A stretch of 64,000 nucleotides of DNA from Escherichia coli (GTDB taxonomy: Bacteria; Pseudomonadota; Gammaproteobacteria; Enterobacterales; Enterobacteriaceae). The stretch is taken from assembly GCF_001677475.2 (NCBI RefSeq), contig NZ_CP015229.1; one strand, 5' to 3'. The notes under the pieces were generated by a model, which saw nothing but the letters and a program-made list of their open reading frames with translations, was not told where the DNA came from and searched no databases. Both the position numbers and the translations under genes were made by a program. Of the stretch, positions 8,769-38,942 are shown piece by piece; position 1 is the stretch's first letter, and each line of letters opens with the position of its first letter.

Positions 8769-11605
8769 GTGAGTTTGCATGGAGCTGGAATGAACCACGG
8801 CCAGCCATTGATCCGGCCAGATTTACGGAGCGCAGGCAGGAAACTGAAACCGACCTGCAACGCGCCATCCGTTACTACCTTGAGGCAGACAAAAGGGCAC
8901 AGGAAGAACAGGAAGCGAAGGAAGAAGCCTTTTTCGCACAATCCACCGTGGGTAAAAAACTCATGGCATCCCTTGAGGAAGCCGGACAGCGTGAAAAGCT
9001 GGCACAGAGCATCATCAGTAAGCGCCGGGCAACAGAACAAGACACGGTAGCCCGTGCCTTTGCCACACTAAAGGCACTACCTGTTTATCTGCGTGAACCA
9101 CTGAGCCGCCACCTCTCTTTCCTGCGCAAAAAACAGGAAGCCGATCGCCGGAAAGGCAAAAAGAGCTGGCAGGCGGAACGCTATGCACGCGGAACCCTGC
9201 GCAAAATATTCGAACGTCTGGACCGCACCGACAGCCGCTGGCTGACACCGGGTTATCGCGCCCTTGCCGGACGCGAACGCCTGGACGATTTGCTTTACCT
9301 GCCGCAGCTCAACAAACACCAGATACAGACGCTGGCCACCATGACAGCGGCGATGTTCAGCAGCACCTTCGAAAAACTCTGCGATGGCTTTGGCGCGACT
9401 GATGGCGAGCTGACCATGGATGTAACGCTGAAGGCGTATCAGATGCTGGCCCGCATGGCGTTACACCTGCACGCCATGCCTCCGCATTATGACGTACTGA
9501 CAACAGACAAAGACCGGAGGAACGAACCAGACACAGAACTGCTGCCGGGCGCAATCCTTCGCCTGACCTGTGCGGAATGGTGGAAACGCAAACTGTGGCT
9601 GTTACGTTGCGAGTGGCGGGAAGAACAACTCCGAGCCGCCTGTCTGGTTTCCAGAAAAACATCGCCCTATCTGAGCCAGGACGCGTTAAGCGAGTTTCGC
9701 GCACAGCGCGAGAAAACACGCGATTTCCTGAAAAGTTTCATGCTGGAAAATGAAGACGGGTTCACGATTGATCTCGAGACGGTGTATTACGCGGGAGTAA
9801 GTAACCCGGTTCACCGTAAGGCAGAAATGATGGCCACCATGAAGGGACTGGAACTTCTGGCCGAAGCCCGTGGCGACAGAGCGGTGTTTCTGACCGTCAC
9901 CTGCCCGTCAAAATACCACGCAACAACGGAGAACGGTCATCCGAACCCCAAATGGAACGGGGCCACCATGCGCGACTCCAGCGATTACCTGGTTAACACG
10001 TTTTTTGCGGCGGTCCGCAAAAAACTGAACCGCGACGGCCTGCGCTGGTATGGCATCCGCACGGTGGAGCCTCACCATGACGGCACTGTGCACTGGCATA
10101 TGATGGTCTTTGCACATCCGGACGAGATTGAAACCATCGTGTCCCACGTCTGCGATATTGCCATTCAGGAGGACCGCCACGAGCTGGGCGATGACATAAC
10201 TCCGCGTTTTAAGGCGGAGTATGTCGACGGCTCAAAAGGCACACCAACCAGCTACATCGCCACCTACATCGGAAAGAACTTGGACAGCCGCGCCGTGGAT
10301 GGCATCGACCCGAAAACGGGCAAGCCACGCGTTGACCACGAAACCGGAAAATCAATGGCCGAGAGCGTGGAGCGCGCCATCGGCTGGGCGCGCCTTCACC
10401 GGGTCCGTCAGTTCCAGTTCTTTGGCATCCCCTCCCGTCAGGTGTGGCGTGAACTGCGCCGCCTTGCCAGCCAGATGGCACGCAATCCGGAAGGCCCGCA
10501 ACGGCTGAAAGATGATGCAATGGATGCGGTACTCGCTGCCGCCGATGCCGGGTGTTTTGCCACCTACATTGAAAAACAGGGTGGCGTGCTTGTTCCACGC
10601 AAGGACTACCTGATTCGCACCGCCTACGACCTCGCAGATGAGCTGAACGATTACGGCGAACAGAGCGTACAGATTTACGGGATCTGGTCACCACTCATCG
10701 GGGAATCCTCCCGTGTGTGCACGCATCCGGATAACTGGAAGTTGGTAAGACGTAAACCAGAACCGGAAGACAACGCCCACGAAAATGGTTTTGACCTTCA
10801 GGGCGGCCCTGCCGCCCCTTGGACTCGTGGCAATAACTGTCCCCGTGTACAGGAAACGGACAATAACGGGACAGAACTGCCGGAAGAACGGCCAGCACCG
10901 TGGCCGCAGCTCCCTGACGGCGTTGAAGTGAACGAATGGATGCGCTCACTGAAACAGCACGAACGCCGGGCGCTGATGCGTTCGCTTCGTGACAAACAGG
11001 CAAAAAACAGCAGTGATGAAATGCAGAGCTGGACACAGAGCCGCAAACAGCAGCGGCCTTTGCCTGATAACCACGAATTACTCGCTAAAGAATGGCGGGA
11101 GTCTGCTGAATCTCTCGGCCTGCATATCGGTGAACAACAGATGCAGCACCTGTTACGGGGCGGCAGCCTGTACGTTGACGGCAGCATCATTGCACCGCAG
11201 GGATTTGAAATTGTACGCAAACCGGATACCCGCCCGGACAGCCGAATCACGCAGCTCTGGCAGCGCCTGAGCCGTAATCATGGCGTAAGCAGCACGGAGA
11301 TCCGCCATAACCCGGTCGCCAGCTATCTGGCACAGCTGGGGGCATCAGACCCTGAAGTCGCCGCACGCCTGGCATCCACACTTCAGCAGGACCAGAACAC
11401 CATGAAAACACCCGTTACCGTGCTTTCTGACATGCTGCGCGCCATCCGCGACGCAGAGCACGCACAGAGAATCAGTGAAACCACTGAACGCGCCCGCCGC
11501 AAAGCAGACCTGCTGCGGGGTGGCCTGACCAGTGGAAACAAAAAACAGACAGAAACGGGACTCATGAATCCCGTAAATGAGCAAAAAACGCGCAGCGATA
11601 TATGA
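8765..11605 (+). CDS. A: replication initiation endonuclease, P2 gpA-like (rolling-circle HUH nickase) with long C-terminal extension
   Basis: HUH-type motif in GTVHWHMMVFAHPD; position after early genes; 946 aa from ATG 8765. Confidence 0.85.
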   Translation: MSEFAWSWNEPRPAIDPARFTERRQETETDLQRAIRYYLEADKRAQEEQEAKEEAFFAQSTVGKKLMASLEEAGQREKLAQSIISKRRATEQDTVARAFATLKALPVYLREPLSRHLSFLRKKQEADRRKGKKSWQAERYARGTLRKIFERLDRTDSRWLTPGYRALAGRERLDDLLYLPQLNKHQIQTLATMTAAMFSSTFEKLCDGFGATDGELTMDVTLKAYQMLARMALHLHAMPPHYDVLTTDKDRRNEPDTELLPGAILRLTCAEWWKRKLWLLRCEWREEQLRAACLVSRKTSPYLSQDALSEFRAQREKTRDFLKSFMLENEDGFTIDLETVYYAGVSNPVHRKAEMMATMKGLELLAEARGDRAVFLTVTCPSKYHATTENGHPNPKWNGATMRDSSDYLVNTFFAAVRKKLNRDGLRWYGIRTVEPHHDGTVHWHMMVFAHPDEIETIVSHVCDIAIQEDRHELGDDITPRFKAEYVDGSKGTPTSYIATYIGKNLDSRAVDGIDPKTGKPRVDHETGKSMAESVERAIGWARLHRVRQFQFFGIPSRQVWRELRRLASQMARNPEGPQRLKDDAMDAVLAAADAGCFATYIEKQGGVLVPRKDYLIRTAYDLADELNDYGEQSVQIYGIWSPLIGESSRVCTHPDNWKLVRRKPEPEDNAHENGFDLQGGPAAPWTRGNNCPRVQETDNNGTELPEERPAPWPQLPDGVEVNEWMRSLKQHERRALMRSLRDKQAKNSSDEMQSWTQSRKQQRPLPDNHELLAKEWRESAESLGLHIGEQQMQHLLRGGSLYVDGSIIAPQGFEIVRKPDTRPDSRITQLWQRLSRNHGVSSTEIRHNPVASYLAQLGASDPEVAARLASTLQQDQNTMKTPVTVLSDMLRAIRDAEHAQRISETTERARRKADLLRGGLTSGNKKQTETGLMNPVNEQKTRSDI

Positions 11606-11653
11606 AGCGCGCACAAAACAGGCAAAAACGGGATTTTAGAATCCCGTAAACGA
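11540..11653. repeat. two ~35-bp imperfect direct repeats, each containing the palindrome acggga-N4-6-tcccgt; candidate parC-like centromere/operator
   Basis: Repeat 1 at 11553-11580 (inside the A 3' end), repeat 2 at 11626-11653 (just upstream of parM). Confidence 0.5.
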
Positions 11654-11681
11654 TTAATTAATCAACATAAGGAAAAGCGAC

Positions 11682-12641
11682 ATGAAAATTTGTATCGACG
11701 ACGGCTCCACCAACATCAAGCTGGCATGGACTGAGAACGGCGAACGCCGCAACGCCATCAGCCCGAACAGCTTCAAGTCGGAATGGTCTGCGCCGTTCGG
11801 TGGCACGCAGCCCGCGAACTACATGCTTGATGGCGTGCGCTATGGTTTTGATCCGGTCAGCGATCGCTTTGTCCAGACGACCGACACGCAATACCAGTAC
11901 AGCGATGTGAATGTCATTGCCATTCATCACGCGCTGGTCAAATCAGGCATCACGCCACAGGAGGTGGATGTGGTTGTCACCCTGCCACTGAGCGAGTATT
12001 TCGACACAAACGCACAGCCGGACATGGCCAACATCAACCGCAAAAAAGCGAACGTTATGCGCCCGGTGGAGTACCAGAACGGCGAAGCATTCACTATCCG
12101 TAACGTGCGGGTTATGCCTGAATCCATTCCGGCTGGCTTTAAGGCACTGGCTGACATGAGTCCGTTTGAATCCCTGCTGATTGTAGATTTGGGCGGAACC
12201 ACGCTGGATGTGGCAAAGGTTCAGGGGCAACTGGCAGGTATCAGCCAGGTGTTTTGCGATCCACACGTAGGCGTTTCTCTGATGGCCGATGCCGTACTGT
12301 CGGTGATGGCCACTAACGGTATGCGCACCAGTCACCACATCGCCAATACCATTATCGAACATCGCCATAATGAAGCCTGGCTGCGCCAGCACATCCACAA
12401 TGACGCGCATTACGCCAGCCTGATGGAGGTTATTCGTGAAAAGGAAGAAACACTGAAACAACGCGTGATCCGCGCGCTGGCGGGTTTTTCGGGTTACGGG
12501 CGGGTGATGGTTGTCGGTGGAGGGGCGGAGATTGTGGCACCCGCTATCCGCGAAGCCTGCGGAGTTCATGCGACTTTCATCGCGGACGGGGTGCCACAGT
12601 TTGCTCTGGTTAATGGGCTGTACGCAATGGACAAGGAGTAA
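11682..12641 (+). CDS. parM: actin-like segregation ATPase, ParM/StbA family
   Basis: 319 aa; motifs IDDGSTNIKL, ISPNSFK, VMPESIPAG, DLGGTTLD, GGGAE, VNGLY parallel plasmid R1 ParM as recalled. Confidence 0.8.
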   Translation: MKICIDDGSTNIKLAWTENGERRNAISPNSFKSEWSAPFGGTQPANYMLDGVRYGFDPVSDRFVQTTDTQYQYSDVNVIAIHHALVKSGITPQEVDVVVTLPLSEYFDTNAQPDMANINRKKANVMRPVEYQNGEAFTIRNVRVMPESIPAGFKALADMSPFESLLIVDLGGTTLDVAKVQGQLAGISQVFCDPHVGVSLMADAVLSVMATNGMRTSHHIANTIIEHRHNEAWLRQHIHNDAHYASLMEVIREKEETLKQRVIRALAGFSGYGRVMVVGGGAEIVAPAIREACGVHATFIADGVPQFALVNGLYAMDKE

Positions 12642-12645
12642 ACCA

Positions 12646-12957
12646 ATGACGACACCAACCAGACGGATAAGTTTCTATCTGAAGCCTGCGGCCGTCAAGA
12701 ACGAAAGCGAAGCATGCGCCTGGCTGGACAGCCTTACACCAGAAGCCCGCAAAAGCGGCCAACGCGTGGCTTTTCTGGCCGGGCTGGCACTTCTGAAAAT
12801 GAATCCGGCAGAGGCTTACCGACTGGCTGCATGGGCTGACGATGAGGCGTTATCAGTGACACAAACCAGGACAGAATGCCCCGCGTCACAGCCAGTATCA
12901 ACCGCACAGATAACCAGTCAGATGGCCGGAAATATCCGGGCGTTATTTCCCGAATAA
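12646..12957 (+). CDS. parR: ParR/StbB-like partition adaptor (DNA-binding)
   Basis: 103 aa directly after parM; RRISFYLKP...LDSLTPEARKS...AFLAGLALL and C-terminal NIRALFPE resemble R1 ParR as recalled. Confidence 0.65.
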   Translation: MTTPTRRISFYLKPAAVKNESEACAWLDSLTPEARKSGQRVAFLAGLALLKMNPAEAYRLAAWADDEALSVTQTRTECPASQPVSTAQITSQMAGNIRALFPE

Positions 12958-12962
12958 CACAA

Positions 12963-12986
12963 CATCAGGGCGCATCCGCCCTGATG
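12963..12986 (+). terminator. hairpin after parR (catcagggcg-catc-cgccctgatg)
   Basis: 10-bp perfect stem; weak T tract, so terminator function is uncertain. Confidence 0.35.
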
Positions 12987-13020: not shown

Positions 13021-13356
13021 ATGCAACACATTGACAGAGAAAAAGCGCAGCGACTGATTGAGCGAATGGAAGCGCTGGCGAAAGAAGAAAATGTCAACAT
13101 CCAAAAAATAGCTGAATGTGGCCAGATAGTTCTTCGTCGTGAAAAAGACATCAAGCAACTGATGTCTGGCGAAATCAGCAAAACATGGACTTCAGGCAAG
13201 AAGACGATTTATTGCAGCTTCTGCAATAAATCCCAGCACGAAGTCATAAAGGTGATTGCCGGACCGTCTGTTTACATCTGCAATGAGTGCGTGGATTTGT
13301 GCAATGAAATTATCAGAAGAGAAGTGACAGACCATGAAGAAAAAACGCATGAATGA
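13021..13356 (+). CDS. stand-alone ClpX zinc-binding-domain (ZBD) homologue with unique N-terminal region
   Basis: 111 aa; segment [39 protein letters not shown] closely matches the E. coli ClpX N-terminal C4 zinc-finger as recalled; no AAA+ module follows. Confidence 0.75.
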
Positions 13357-13418
13357 CGAATTTGACGGCTTTTAATTTTATCGGGGCACACTGTCTCCCC
13401 CCGCACGAGGAAAACACG

Positions 13419-13943
13419 ATGAAAAAATACGAATACATGCTAATGAAAGAAGCACTGCGGGCTGGTCTGGCTCCCTGTCCTGTATCCGTAGAAGCTGTTG
13501 TTGGGAACACGATTTTCCGAACGCTGCGAAATCGCGTATCCGTGAAGATGATTCACCAACCACCCAAATCTACCAGCATGATCTATCTGCCGCTGCCCGA
13601 GGCTATCAAACTTATGCGTTCGCTGAAATTTGCGATTTGGATGCAGACACAACTCAACAAAGCGGTGCAAAACACCTTCGTTAAGAAACTGATGCCGGAG
13701 CTTGCTGCCAGATGTGCAAAATGTACCAGACCCGCACTTCAATTTGATCTGTCATTGATTCAACAAGCTACGGAGGCAGAACTGTACCGCCTGTCACCTC
13801 TCCATGATGTTCACACGGAAGCCTCAGAAATGTTCCGGCTCATGTTTCAATTTAATTTTGCCGTTCGACGCACACGCGTTCAGGTCAATCGCATGATGCA
13901 GGCGCAGGAAGAGCTGACGCAACACAAAGGAGGCAACCAGTGA
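13419..13943 (+). CDS. hypothetical protein (cargo, gene A-proximal hotspot)
   Basis: 174-aa ORF from ATG 13419 with RBS; stop overlaps next start. Confidence 0.55.
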   Translation: MKKYEYMLMKEALRAGLAPCPVSVEAVVGNTIFRTLRNRVSVKMIHQPPKSTSMIYLPLPEAIKLMRSLKFAIWMQTQLNKAVQNTFVKKLMPELAARCAKCTRPALQFDLSLIQQATEAELYRLSPLHDVHTEASEMFRLMFQFNFAVRRTRVQVNRMMQAQEELTQHKGGNQ

Positions 13944-14464
13944 GCAAGATTGACTATCAGGCATTACGCGAACGCTATTCACCTGCGCCAGTACCGAAAT
14001 GCCCTATTTGCGGCGAGGAAATGTCAATTCAGCGAATATCTGGAGCACAGGTTGTTTATGCCTGCTCCGGTTATGGTGATGATGGAGATTTCAAAATTGG
14101 TCGAACTCTTGCCGACGAACATTATGAAAAATCGCGCGTAACAGTGTTGGATGTCGGGGATCCTGAAGTATTGGCGCTACTTGATTGGCTGGAAACTAAA
14201 GACAACCGAATCGCTGAACTGGAAAAAATCGCCACTGACTATGCACTTAAATTCCAGAAAGCACAGGACGCATTAAAGCATGCCGCTTTGCTGCATAGCC
14301 GGACGGCGCAACAAACAAATAATTTTGCAGTATCGCTTCCGGACATAAGCGAATATTTCATTAATGACGTATTTCAGCCCTTGCGATACGAGCGGGATGT
14401 TGAAAGAGCCATCATAAAGGCTGGCGGAAAAGCATTGTGGCAGGAGAAACACGACGACAGATAA
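13940..14464 (+). CDS. hypothetical protein with N-terminal CxxC...C zinc-ribbon-like motif
   Basis: 174-aa ORF ATGA-coupled to previous gene; CPICGEEM...YACSGYG. Confidence 0.55.
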   Translation: MSKIDYQALRERYSPAPVPKCPICGEEMSIQRISGAQVVYACSGYGDDGDFKIGRTLADEHYEKSRVTVLDVGDPEVLALLDWLETKDNRIAELEKIATDYALKFQKAQDALKHAALLHSRTAQQTNNFAVSLPDISEYFINDVFQPLRYERDVERAIIKAGGKALWQEKHDDR

Positions 14465-15041
14465 AAATAACACCTGATCTCCCTCAAACCAGGGCGATAA
14501 TCGCGCATCGCCCTGCTGCACAATAGTGCACAAATTTGCACAATTTTTTTGAACGACTTTTTGCCCTTCCGGCCCGCGTGGCGGCTGGATCCGTCAAGGA
14601 TCCGTGCGTGCACAAAAAAACGCGTTTTTTCTGCGCGCAGGTGACGGGGGAACAGCCCGCGTTTCAGGGGGTAAATAGCGTTCCCTTAACGATGTCGCAG
14701 CGACACGACAGAATGGCCGTATCGCTCACGCTGAGCGTGAAAAATACGTGAGGGATTCTGATTTGATGGGGTGAAAGGTAAGGCCGTCAAAATCGCACTG
14801 AGGCGGCGAGAACATGCAGTCAGCGCGGTGGGATTGTGTAGAGTCTGGCCGTCGATGATAGCGATAAGTCGGAAGATGTCGTGAAATTATCTGATTGATA
14901 CGGGAGCTGGAGAGCCGGGGCATAAATTTTTTATGCCCCGGCGAAGCAGCAGACAAGCGAAGCGCGTCAGTGATGCGGCACCTTGCCGACCACACTTCAT
15001 AAGTGCAAAATACGAGCAAAGAAATCAATGGAGGCTGTTTT

Positions 15042-15566
15042 ATGGTCATTAATTACAAGCAGTTACGAGAAAAACGAGAGCAGGTAAAGGAAAGTTTTCG
15101 CCGCAATGAAGATCTGACCCCGCTTGTACACCTTGCCCAGGGAATTGTTGATGCTTATGAAATCTCTCTGGAGCTGCCATCACAGACATGGACGGATAGC
15201 GACGGTAATCGCCAGCATTACGTTTCATGCGGACTGGAAACAACTGAAGGGTTTCGCAGAATGCCTTTATCTCAGATTCCTGCCGCTACCCCCAAAGCAA
15301 GGGGCGGCAATGATGAGCGAAAACTGATTTTCAGCATTGAGACAGTGGTTGACGACACACCTGGCGAAGTCGCGTTCGTGCATACTCCTCTTTCGATCGC
15401 AATGTATAACGATGAAATACAGGTTCGCGTTAATAATAATATCGTGCCACTTAAAGAAGGTAATTCACCATACACCACCGTTTGTGAAGCCATTCAATAT
15501 TACGTTCTCTCTGAAATTGATAATCTCAAGCCTGACGGCACCCAGAAAATGGTTCAACTCTGGTAA
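15042..15566 (+). CDS. hypothetical protein between cos region and portal gene
   Basis: 174-aa ORF convergent with Q; the ORF-track alternative start is 15003. Confidence 0.5.
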   Translation: MVINYKQLREKREQVKESFRRNEDLTPLVHLAQGIVDAYEISLELPSQTWTDSDGNRQHYVSCGLETTEGFRRMPLSQIPAATPKARGGNDERKLIFSIETVVDDTPGEVAFVHTPLSIAMYNDEIQVRVNNNIVPLKEGNSPYTTVCEAIQYYVLSEIDNLKPDGTQKMVQLW

Positions 15567-37502: not shown

Positions 37503-38261
37503 ATGTTCAGTTTGTTTTCGTTAACTGCCGGAGCAAATGTGCGCTGGCATGATTTACCTGGTCAGGGTATTCCTGTTGTTTTTATTCATGGACTTGGCTG
37601 TTCCTCTTCTTATGAATATCCACGGGTTGTTGCAGATCCTGTATTTGGTGGACAACGAGCGATATTGATAGATCTCCCTGGATATGGATTCAGTGATAAG
37701 CCTAAAGGATTCGATTACAGCATATCCCATCAAGCTAAGGTTGTTATTGAAGTAGTAGAAACCTTAAATCTCTCACAGTTCCATATTTATGGTCACAGTA
37801 TGGGGGGAAGTATTGCGATTGAAGTAGCCAGACAACTACATGAGAGAACAAGAAAGCTTGTGGTTTCTGAGCCTAATTTTCACTCTGGTGGAGGTACCTA
37901 TAGCCGTAAGATAATAGAGAAGCCAGAAGCAGAGTTTATTTCGCATATATATAATGAATTACTGGAGTGTGAAACATCCCCATGGAAAGGTGAACTCCAG
38001 AATGCAGCCCCATGGGCAATATGGCGAGGAGCCAAAAGTCTGGTTGATGGAACCACTCCATCATGGCGAGATATATTCCTTAATCTGTCCTGTTCACGAA
38101 CACTAATTTTTGGCGAACAATCATTGCCAGATAATGATTTCCAGTATATAAAAGAATCAGGAATATCTGTTGCAATAGTGCCAAACGCCGGACACTCCAT
38201 GTCATGGGAAAACCCATCAGCACTGGCCGAAATTTTACACACAGAATTTTATAAAGAGTAA
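37503..38261 (+). CDS. alpha/beta-hydrolase fold protein (esterase/lipase-type), prophage cargo
   Basis: 252 aa; oxyanion HGLG, nucleophile elbow GHSMGG, C-terminal His (NAGHS); AT-rich island between D and ogr. Confidence 0.7.
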   Translation: MFSLFSLTAGANVRWHDLPGQGIPVVFIHGLGCSSSYEYPRVVADPVFGGQRAILIDLPGYGFSDKPKGFDYSISHQAKVVIEVVETLNLSQFHIYGHSMGGSIAIEVARQLHERTRKLVVSEPNFHSGGGTYSRKIIEKPEAEFISHIYNELLECETSPWKGELQNAAPWAIWRGAKSLVDGTTPSWRDIFLNLSCSRTLIFGEQSLPDNDFQYIKESGISVAIVPNAGHSMSWENPSALAEILHTEFYKE

Positions 38262-38621: not shown

Positions 38622-38882
38622 ATGTTCCGTTGTCCGCTTTGTGGCGCATCTGCCCGTATCCGCACCAGTCGTCCAGAAAATGATTCAAACACCGTACGGC
38701 AAAAGTATTACCAATGTAACAACCTGGAATGCGGCGTATGCTTCTCAACACTGGAAGCTTTCCATAAATTCACATCGAAACACGCCTCCGGCGCTCACTC
38801 TTCAGAAAGTATCCCGTGGCATGAACTGCCAGCTTCCCACAGAGGAAACAATCAGATGAGTTTGCCCTTACCTCAAAATTAA
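38622..38882 (+). CDS. ogr: late gene transcription activator, Ogr/Delta zinc-finger family
   Basis: MFRCPLCGASARIRTSR...YYQCNNLECGVCF resembles recalled P2 Ogr (CPLC...C..C). Confidence 0.85.
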   Translation: MFRCPLCGASARIRTSRPENDSNTVRQKYYQCNNLECGVCFSTLEAFHKFTSKHASGAHSSESIPWHELPASHRGNNQMSLPLPQN

Positions 38883-38942
38883 CAGGCAGAATTGCCGGAG
38901 TAACAAAAAAGCGATAGATTACGCGCGGGTGCCTTTCGGCTG

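Follow-up and report, generated by a model that had tools for sequence, protein, structure and literature searches.

A 64,000-nucleotide stretch of the Escherichia coli contig NZ_CP015229.1 (referred to here, at its full length, as the window) contains an integrated P2-like prophage in which the replication gene A is followed directly by a ParMRC-type partition cassette; a pair of parC-like repeats, the actin-like ATPase gene parM and the small adaptor gene parR stand in the canonical order, and the cassette moves as a unit. Partition systems are usually regarded as plasmid equipment. We think it likely, at a probability of roughly 0.6, that this cassette (11541–12986) is a complete and functional R1-type (type II) ParMRC system, carried as an accessory module by P88-like phages, and that it segregates the phage circle while that circle is transiently non-integrated and replicating. 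The feature is real and its parts are ordinary: the parMR genes are already annotated in GenBank, RefSeq and PHROGs, and the presence of partition genes in an integrative phage has already been remarked on in print. The coordinates of all features are collected in Table 1.

The first gene of the cassette specifies a 319-residue protein that is matched end to end by the Pfam StbA_N and ParM C-terminal domains, and that aligns with the R1 ParM structures in the PDB (1mwk) over residues 2–316 with an E value of 9.5e-93. It is 47% identical to R1 ParM over the full length and 52% identical to the ParM of IncL/M plasmids. In alignments with R1 ParM, the motifs DDGSTNIK, MPESIPAG, DLGGTTLD and GGGAE are identical or conserved; in ParM proteins these correspond to the phosphate 1 motif, the catalytic glutamate, the phosphate 2 motif and the adenosine motif, respectively. 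An earlier note on this DNA, made from the letters alone, had recognized the hallmark ParM/StbA motifs and a small ParR/StbB-like partner, and the Pfam searches bear out both assignments, with significant similarity for each protein. Pfam and PHROGs (the latter holds dedicated "partition protein" families for both ParM and ParR) were decisive for the identification where NCBIfam was not. In particular, NCBIfam gave only sub-threshold matches for ParM (PRTRC_D at 26 bits, and PRK13917 at 19.5 bits versus a cutoff of 417), and no match for ParR or for the gene A product.

The second gene, whose true start is the ATG at 12646 rather than the TTG at 12511, specifies a 103-residue member of the StbB/ParR family. 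Against the first 55 residues of R1 ParR its identity is 35%, and a profile of the family matches the solved structure of pB171 ParR (2jd3) over residues 7–75 with an E value of 2.6e-6; as a single sequence ParR had no match in the PDB. The ribbon-helix-helix fold is structurally unconfirmed, as the AlphaFold2 model of the ParR monomer has a mean predicted local distance difference test score (pLDDT) of 58.6 and a Foldseek comparison of it with the PDB gave nothing meaningful. At the N terminus lies a DNA-binding domain in which the strand RRISFYLKP never varies, and a variable linker joins it to a conserved NIRALFPE motif at the C terminus; in the form NI(R/Q)xLFPE, this tail is kept after the linker in all 45 ParR alleles. 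Consistent with this organization, the ratio of nonsynonymous to synonymous polymorphism (pN/pS) is low in the N-terminal domain (0.13) and in the last ten residues (0.057) and higher in the linker between them (0.52; residues 63–93); a constrained DNA-binding domain and a constrained tail joined by a relaxed linker is the pattern expected of an adaptor. Comparable C-terminal tails, with the spacing N-x-x-x-L, occur in IncL/M ParR (KNVQHLFPDDD), in R1 ParR (KKNAMKLIN) and in the ParR of phage D6, and IncL/M ParR is otherwise dissimilar to the phage protein despite its like tail. By analogy with R1, the tail is most likely the ParM-binding helix.

The ParR alleles are also mosaic. The helical core and the linker (codons 18–100, window positions 12700–12950) are only about 50–57% identical between allele types, while ParM stays 98–99% identical and both ends of ParR are conserved, and DNA homology among E. 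coli prophages often breaks near parR codon 18, at 12700–12790. Avoidance of mixed dimers is one possible explanation for this mosaicism.

Upstream of parM, a repeat search found one direct pair, the copies being 81% identical and 73 bp apart from start to start. The earlier note had described two direct repeats of roughly 35 bp, each with an acggga...tcccgt palindrome and one of them overlapping the 3' end of gene A. The pair, the palindromes and the overlap all stand; only the length needs correction, to 42 nt. The two palindromes are the only exact matches to ACGGGA-N8-TCCCGT in the 64-kb window, for which we calculate a chance expectation of about 0.01. Across 81 loci the majority form of both copies is ACGGGATT-N4-AATCCCGT, with conserved arms and variable loops, including loop changes that alter the tail of the A protein. 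Where the arms deviate, they do so by single transitions, never in compensatory pairs and without a consistent bias toward one strand (the changes in palindrome 1 are G.U-compatible on the minus strand, and those in palindrome 2 on the plus strand), a pattern that fits a protein-binding site on duplex DNA better than an RNA hairpin. The A-tracts within 11536–11653 are phased at about 10–11 bp. A TAGAAT resembling a −10 element lies at the center of palindrome 2, and a weak AAAACA-N16-TAGAAT, found by eye, overlaps that palindrome; a consensus scan found no plus-strand terminator between gene A and parMR. In R1, in IncL/M plasmids and in D6, each ParR family likewise has its own repeats at the same place, upstream of parM. 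We regard the two palindromes as a candidate parC centromere.

The boundaries of the cassette bear directly on how the repeats are read. Among 80 IMG/VR loci with this ParM there is one, L034, whose homology to the window spans exactly 11541–12986. In L034 a shorter A gene is followed by an unrelated 155-aa cysteine-rich open reading frame (ORF; L034 2457–2924) and then by parM, and this ORF ends with the same tail as the A gene of the window, ...TGFTNPVNEQKTRSDI and a stop. The extent of the homology, together with the shared tail, implies that repeat 1 is part of the partition cassette rather than of gene A; the upstream ORF, whichever is present, simply reads into repeat 1. Indeed, the last 20 or so codons of gene A in the window (...QTETGLMNPVNEQKTRSDI and a stop) are supplied by repeat 1 and the DNA between the repeats. 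On the other side, the homology of L034 and of several other loci stops at 12983–12986, at the end of a G+C-rich hairpin that is probably a terminator. In sibling prophages without parMR, the homology of gene A to the window is lost at 11497–11519. The transferable unit is thus 11541–12986, from the left edge of repeat 1 to the hairpin behind parR, and the boundary in L034 provides the strongest computational support for regarding the repeats as a putative parC.

The element that carries the cassette is confirmed as an integrated P2-like, P88-type prophage between btuC and ihfA/pheT, as the earlier note had supposed in calling it an integrated P2-like prophage. The host genes btuD, gpx (glutathione peroxidase) and btuC lie to its left, and a 99-aa ORF that we take to be ihfA-like is followed further to the right by pheT, pheS and thrS. 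Direct repeats of the attachment-site (att) type flank the prophage, its integrase matches phrog_1, and its layout is that of P2, with a P2-type A gene, the portal gene Q and the terminase gene P on the opposite strand, the integrase gene and ogr (38622–38882). The element is 98% identical to Escherichia phage P88 (Xuanwuvirus, Peduoviridae), and for the cassette DNA the figure is 98.4%. In a pairwise comparison the gene A product is 31% identical to P2 A, and within the homologous codons of A the sequence GCCCCTTGGACTCGTGGCAATAACTG at 10814–10839 agrees with the annotated P2 nick site GCGCCTCGGAGTCCTGTCAATAACTG at 21 of 26 bases; this is the probable phage origin of replication (ori), about 0.74 kb upstream of palindrome 1 and the candidate parC.

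On the plus strand, the ORF map and the sequence give the order gene A, a gap of 76 nt, the 319-aa ORF, four bases and the 103-aa ORF. The annotation of P2 itself places orf91 next after A, in the same orientation, and beyond it tin and old, which are read from the other strand and have a promoter of their own. The parMR genes, co-oriented with A and directly 3' of it, occupy an orf91-like place where the variable A–Q slot begins. The earlier note had put them at the position of tin and old; they do not form a convergent unit of the tin/old kind.

Toward the right end of the prophage, between ogr and the right att repeat, a 46-aa ORF of the Hok/Gef toxin family lies on the plus strand (39073–39213; Pfam HOK_GEF, 4.8e-7), and an Rfam "sok" match lies upstream of it at 38927–39086 (48.4 bits, below the gathering score of 59; E value 1.6e-9). 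P88 and the circular record NZ_CP148288.1 have the same hok/gef gene in their annotations. Counterparts of both classical stability loci of R1, parMRC and hok/sok, are thus present in the phage.

The cassette is intact and under strong purifying selection. Of 83 loci examined for ParM, 82 have it intact; for ParR the figure is 76 of 77. The pN/pS of parM is 0.06 across 69 distinct alleles. We found parM in 1302 of 5426 complete E. coli genomes (about 24%), in up to three copies per genome; 1440 of its places in those genomes are chromosomal and two are on plasmids. Among 72,556 plasmids, only six records, all of them with P88-like DNA, encode a ParM of 95% identity or more, and no other plasmid ParM among the best 5000 matches exceeds 53%. 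A search of 50,697 phage records found this ParM in P88-like phages, and otherwise only the P1-like phage-plasmid D6 has a relative of it (47.5% identical). As far as these sequence collections go, the phage ParM is a distinct lineage, found here only with P88-like DNA. The earlier note had left three roles open, namely plasmid-like maintenance, segregation of replicating phage DNA, and capture of a plasmid module as cargo. A recent capture is disfavored by the ceiling of 53% among the best 5000 plasmid matches (save the six P88-like records) and by the strong purifying selection, and stable plasmid maintenance as the usual state is disfavored by the ratio of 1440 chromosomal to two plasmid places. 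Segregation of extrachromosomal or replicating phage DNA would seem to be the best fit of the three.

By homology to R1, the cassette might work as follows. ParR dimers would bind the two ACGGGAyT-N4-AATCCCGT palindromes of parC, which are 73 bp or about seven helical turns apart amid the phased A-tracts; the ParR tail NIRALFPE would capture the growing ends of ATP–ParM filaments, and growth of the filaments would push sister phage circles apart. We envisage that the cassette is active while the phage is not integrated, once it has infected a cell or been excised and gene A is replicating the circle from the ori some 0.7 kb away, and that the outcome is a spreading of phage circles within the cell or to both daughters, with no permanent plasmid being maintained. 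We favor such a transient role because copies of the cassette are almost always chromosomal, because parMR directly follows the early replication operon in the same orientation, lacks a consensus promoter and is separated from the operon by no plus-strand terminator, because the presumed ori is so close upstream, and because the precedent in an integrative and conjugative element (ICE), the srpMRC system discussed below, works likewise.

Several points weigh against this proposal. Binding of the palindromes and capture of filaments by the tail are predicted from homology to R1, the timing of expression and the role on phage circles are inferred, and co-transcription of A with parMR is deduced from their orientation and the absence of a plus-strand terminator. 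R1 has ten iterons, but there are only two candidate ParR sites here; the centromere may therefore lack parts or be built on another plan. A sigma-70 promoter scan returned no consensus site upstream of parM. Intermediate ParR relatives with a different DNA-reading strand, in which covariation with the palindromes might have been seen, were sought and none was found: the phage ParR family ends at about 44% identity, and the next relatives are R1-type proteins at 33–35%. Sibling prophages do without the cassette, which makes it accessory and not essential. Finally, P2-type replication is of the rolling-circle kind and ends in lysis, and what would be gained from a bipolar spindle before lysis is not obvious.

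It is possible, if distinctly less probable than transient segregation, that P88-like phages truly lead two lives and that their genome is actively segregated by a ParM spindle, either in a carrier or episomal state, with hok/sok as a back-up, or during lytic replication. In the latter case an R1-type ParMRC would serve as a machine for positioning phage DNA, for which we know of no example in an integrative phage of a Gram-negative host.

Of the explanations that compete with transient segregation, the one that survives best, though we consider it improbable, is that these phages are facultative phage-plasmids. Under it, the genome would persist long term as a low-copy circle, for example where attB is absent or occupied, with A and ori replicating it, ParMRC partitioning it and hok/sok killing the cells that lose it. 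Such a life would account for the presence of counterparts of both R1 stability loci, and a related ParM is used by the phage-plasmid D6. A PLSDB record from a cat isolate, NZ_CP148288.1 (our loci L002 and L090), is moreover a circular "plasmid" of 34,461 bp that consists of a whole P88-like genome. Either a true episome or an excised population that the assembler resolved would explain this circle; its record, the single one of its kind, starts beside int and att and could equally represent a spontaneously induced, excised population. A copy that is 100% identical to it over 24 kb is chromosomally integrated in a human isolate with a similar strain name (NZ_CP148378.1), and we count this pair of records in favor of a transient, not a permanent, episome. 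A 26.7-kb Shigella "plasmid" that also matched is a linear prophage fragment and was discarded as uninformative. More generally, the window copy is integrated between att repeats with an integrase gene present, and 1440 of the 1442 parM places are chromosomal, such that the extrachromosomal maintenance by which a phage-plasmid is recognized was not what we found; the P2-type A protein, moreover, is a rolling-circle initiator tied to lytic growth.

Somewhat more doubtful still is a role in lysogenic conversion or conflict, in which the ParR of the prophage, with or without ParM, would destabilize or mis-segregate incoming phages or plasmids that bear parC, or in which the cassette would be no more than selfish cargo of the A–Q junction. 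Other cargo does follow A in siblings, an AAA-family ATPase and an S8 peptidase in one and three hypothetical genes on the opposite strand in another (L006 4330–7700 and L007 4177–6704), which makes the A–Q junction a cargo hotspot; the P2 occupants of this slot are tin and old, which are exclusion genes. The weak −10-like TAGAAT in palindrome 2 makes autoregulated expression in the lysogen possible, and the mosaicism of ParR beyond codon 18, set against a ParM that is 98% identical, could reflect conflict between co-resident copies. However, two to three copies are tolerated in single genomes, and the DNA-reading strand of ParR and the palindromes are the same for all ParR alleles. Furthermore, the low pN/pS values fall on ParM, which is dispensable for incompatibility, and on the presumed ParM-binding tail of ParR, and PADLOC gave no defense-system match for ParM, for ParR or for the four cargo ORFs downstream.

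Least likely, in our judgment, is that the palindromes are not a centromere and act instead as terminators or RNA hairpins (an antisense stop into A, or structure in the A–parM mRNA), with the ParR sites elsewhere: a consensus scan does list both as minus-strand terminator-like, each with a T-rich tail, but no minus-strand gene reads into the region, a separate hairpin already follows parR, no Rfam family matches around the cassette, the arm deviations are uncompensated, and the left edge of the cassette coincides exactly with that of repeat 1, as expected of a cis-acting site that travels with parMR. Predicted folding of the region is also better than that of shuffled sequence, whichever strand is taken (z-scores of −4.4 and −4.6); we rejected these scores as evidence because two copies of a palindrome produce them trivially.

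A close known relative of the cassette is the ParMRC system of plasmids R1 and NR1 (also called parA or stbAB), with which it shares the order (candidate) parC, parM, parR, repeats directly upstream of parM, a ParM with all nucleotide-binding motifs, a ParR of the same Pfam family that is similar in its N-terminal domain, and a tail in which N-x-x-x-L aligns. The differences lie elsewhere. R1 parC comprises two blocks of 11-bp direct iterons around a promoter with a consensus TTGACA, whereas in the phage two 20-bp palindromes sit within 42-nt repeats, the first of which falls inside the ORF upstream, and a consensus promoter is absent; the phage ParR has 103 residues versus 116–117 in R1, and the host replicon is an integrative P2-like phage and not a low-copy plasmid. 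Across the cassette, P88 and other Xuanwuvirus phages (PhiSM, 520873 and P884B11) are 95–98% identical in DNA to the window, and P88 has both genes annotated (as "plasmid segregation protein ParM" and "partition protein") and the same hok/gef gene near att. The window represents another member of this group, differing only in the cargo behind parR and in the ParR linker allele. D6 resembles the phage system in its R1-type ParM, a small ParR downstream and repeats upstream, and its annotation cites similarity to the StbA protein of P88. P1-like phages such as D6 are maintained as plasmid prophages. The role of partition is obvious in D6, which is P1-like, whereas P88-like phages integrate.

Two further systems come from elements that normally reside in the chromosome. 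The srpMRC system of SXT/R391 ICEs stabilizes the excised, replicating circle, and its operon is switched on only upon activation (PMC4489591). Like the phage cassette it is a type II partition system in a normally chromosomal element, and its centromere, which lies upstream of the gene for the ATPase, is built from a small number of direct and inverted repeats (PMC4489591). Unlike the phage proteins, which are clear R1-type homologs, SrpM and SrpR are only distantly related to those of R1; in addition, an ICE is not a phage, and the function of srpMRC was shown experimentally, whereas that of the phage cassette is proposed. AlpAC of the Corynebacterium glutamicum prophage CGP3, together with alpS, is likewise a prophage-encoded actin-like protein with a DNA-binding adaptor and cis-acting sites, and, according to a published report, efficient replication of the viral DNA depends on it (PMC4446434); it belongs to another actin-like lineage, has an adaptor of another family and works in a Gram-positive host.

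As for the P88-type cassette, its partition genes led Pfeifer et al. 2021 (PMC7969092) to class P88 as a putative, possibly episomal, phage-plasmid. The paper on P88 does not mention partition, a paper on Citrobacter rodentium prophages lists the PhiSM gene only as a "fitness" factor, and we found no functional study of a P88-type cassette in the literature. What the present analysis adds is modest, namely the cassette boundaries, a candidate two-palindrome centromere, the domain-wise pattern of selection in ParR and the distance of the phage ParM from plasmid ParMs. Nevertheless, about a quarter of complete E. coli genomes carry this system inside an integrated phage, under strong purifying selection. 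If it does serve transient episomal segregation, the blurred boundary between integrative elements and plasmids that SXT/R391 ICEs exemplify would extend to phages, and estimates of prophage stability, of the efficiency of lysogenization and of phage-plasmid classification would be affected. Should a dual lifestyle prove real, E. coli would offer a genetically tractable system for it.

Table 1. Positions of the partition cassette, the replication gene and neighboring features in the 64,000-nt window.
Feature	Position	Strand	Remarks
att-type direct repeats, 25 bp	2680–2704 and 39479–39503		Flank the prophage
Gene A, P2-type replication endonuclease, 955 aa	8738–11605	+	phrog_91 "nicking at origin of replication", 2e-275
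Presumed ori nick region	10814–10839	+	Inside gene A; homology to the P2 nick site only
parC-like repeat 1 (candidate)	11539–11580		Palindrome ACGGGACTCATGAATCCCGT at 11555–11574; inside the 3' end of gene A
parC-like repeat 2 (candidate)	11612–11653		Palindrome ACGGGATTTTAGAATCCCGT at 11628–11647; 29 nt upstream of the parM ATG
Shine-Dalgarno sequence of parM, AAGGA	11669–11673
parM, actin-like segregation ATPase, 319 aa	11682–12641	+	Pfam StbA_N, 2.5e-82; ParM C-domain, 1.9e-67; end to end
parR, centromere-binding adaptor by homology, 103 aa	12646–12957	+	PF10784 Plasmid_stab_B (StbB/ParR), 2.2e-24
G+C-rich hairpin, 10-bp stem (probable terminator)	12963–12986		Just 3' of the parR stop; right cassette edge
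Four cargo ORFs	13021–15566	+	Between parR and the portal gene
Cargo ORF, 111 aa	within 13021–15566	+	ClpX-type C4 zinc finger; NCBIfam clpX N-terminus, 2e-13
Cargo ORF, 196 aa	within 13021–15566	+	No matches
Cargo ORF, 174 aa, zinc-ribbon protein	within 13021–15566	+	phrog_368
Cargo ORF, 187 aa	within 13021–15566	+	phrog_5091
99-aa ORF	39521–39820		Between the right att repeat and pheT; resembles ihfA by recognition

The slot behind parR, which in the window holds the four cargo ORFs, is variable among relatives, and their homology to the window ends at positions that range from 12790 to beyond 13400. Between the tail gene D and ogr, a 252-aa ORF with an alpha/beta-hydrolase fold (37503–38261, plus strand; weak NCBIfam matches of about 1e-18) is probably a moron at a second cargo site of the P2 type. 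Finally, a match to the enterobacterial small RNA family STnc540 in Rfam (39427–39579, minus strand; 42.8 bits versus a threshold of 38) overlaps two features, the right-hand att repeat and the 3' end of the host gene beside it.

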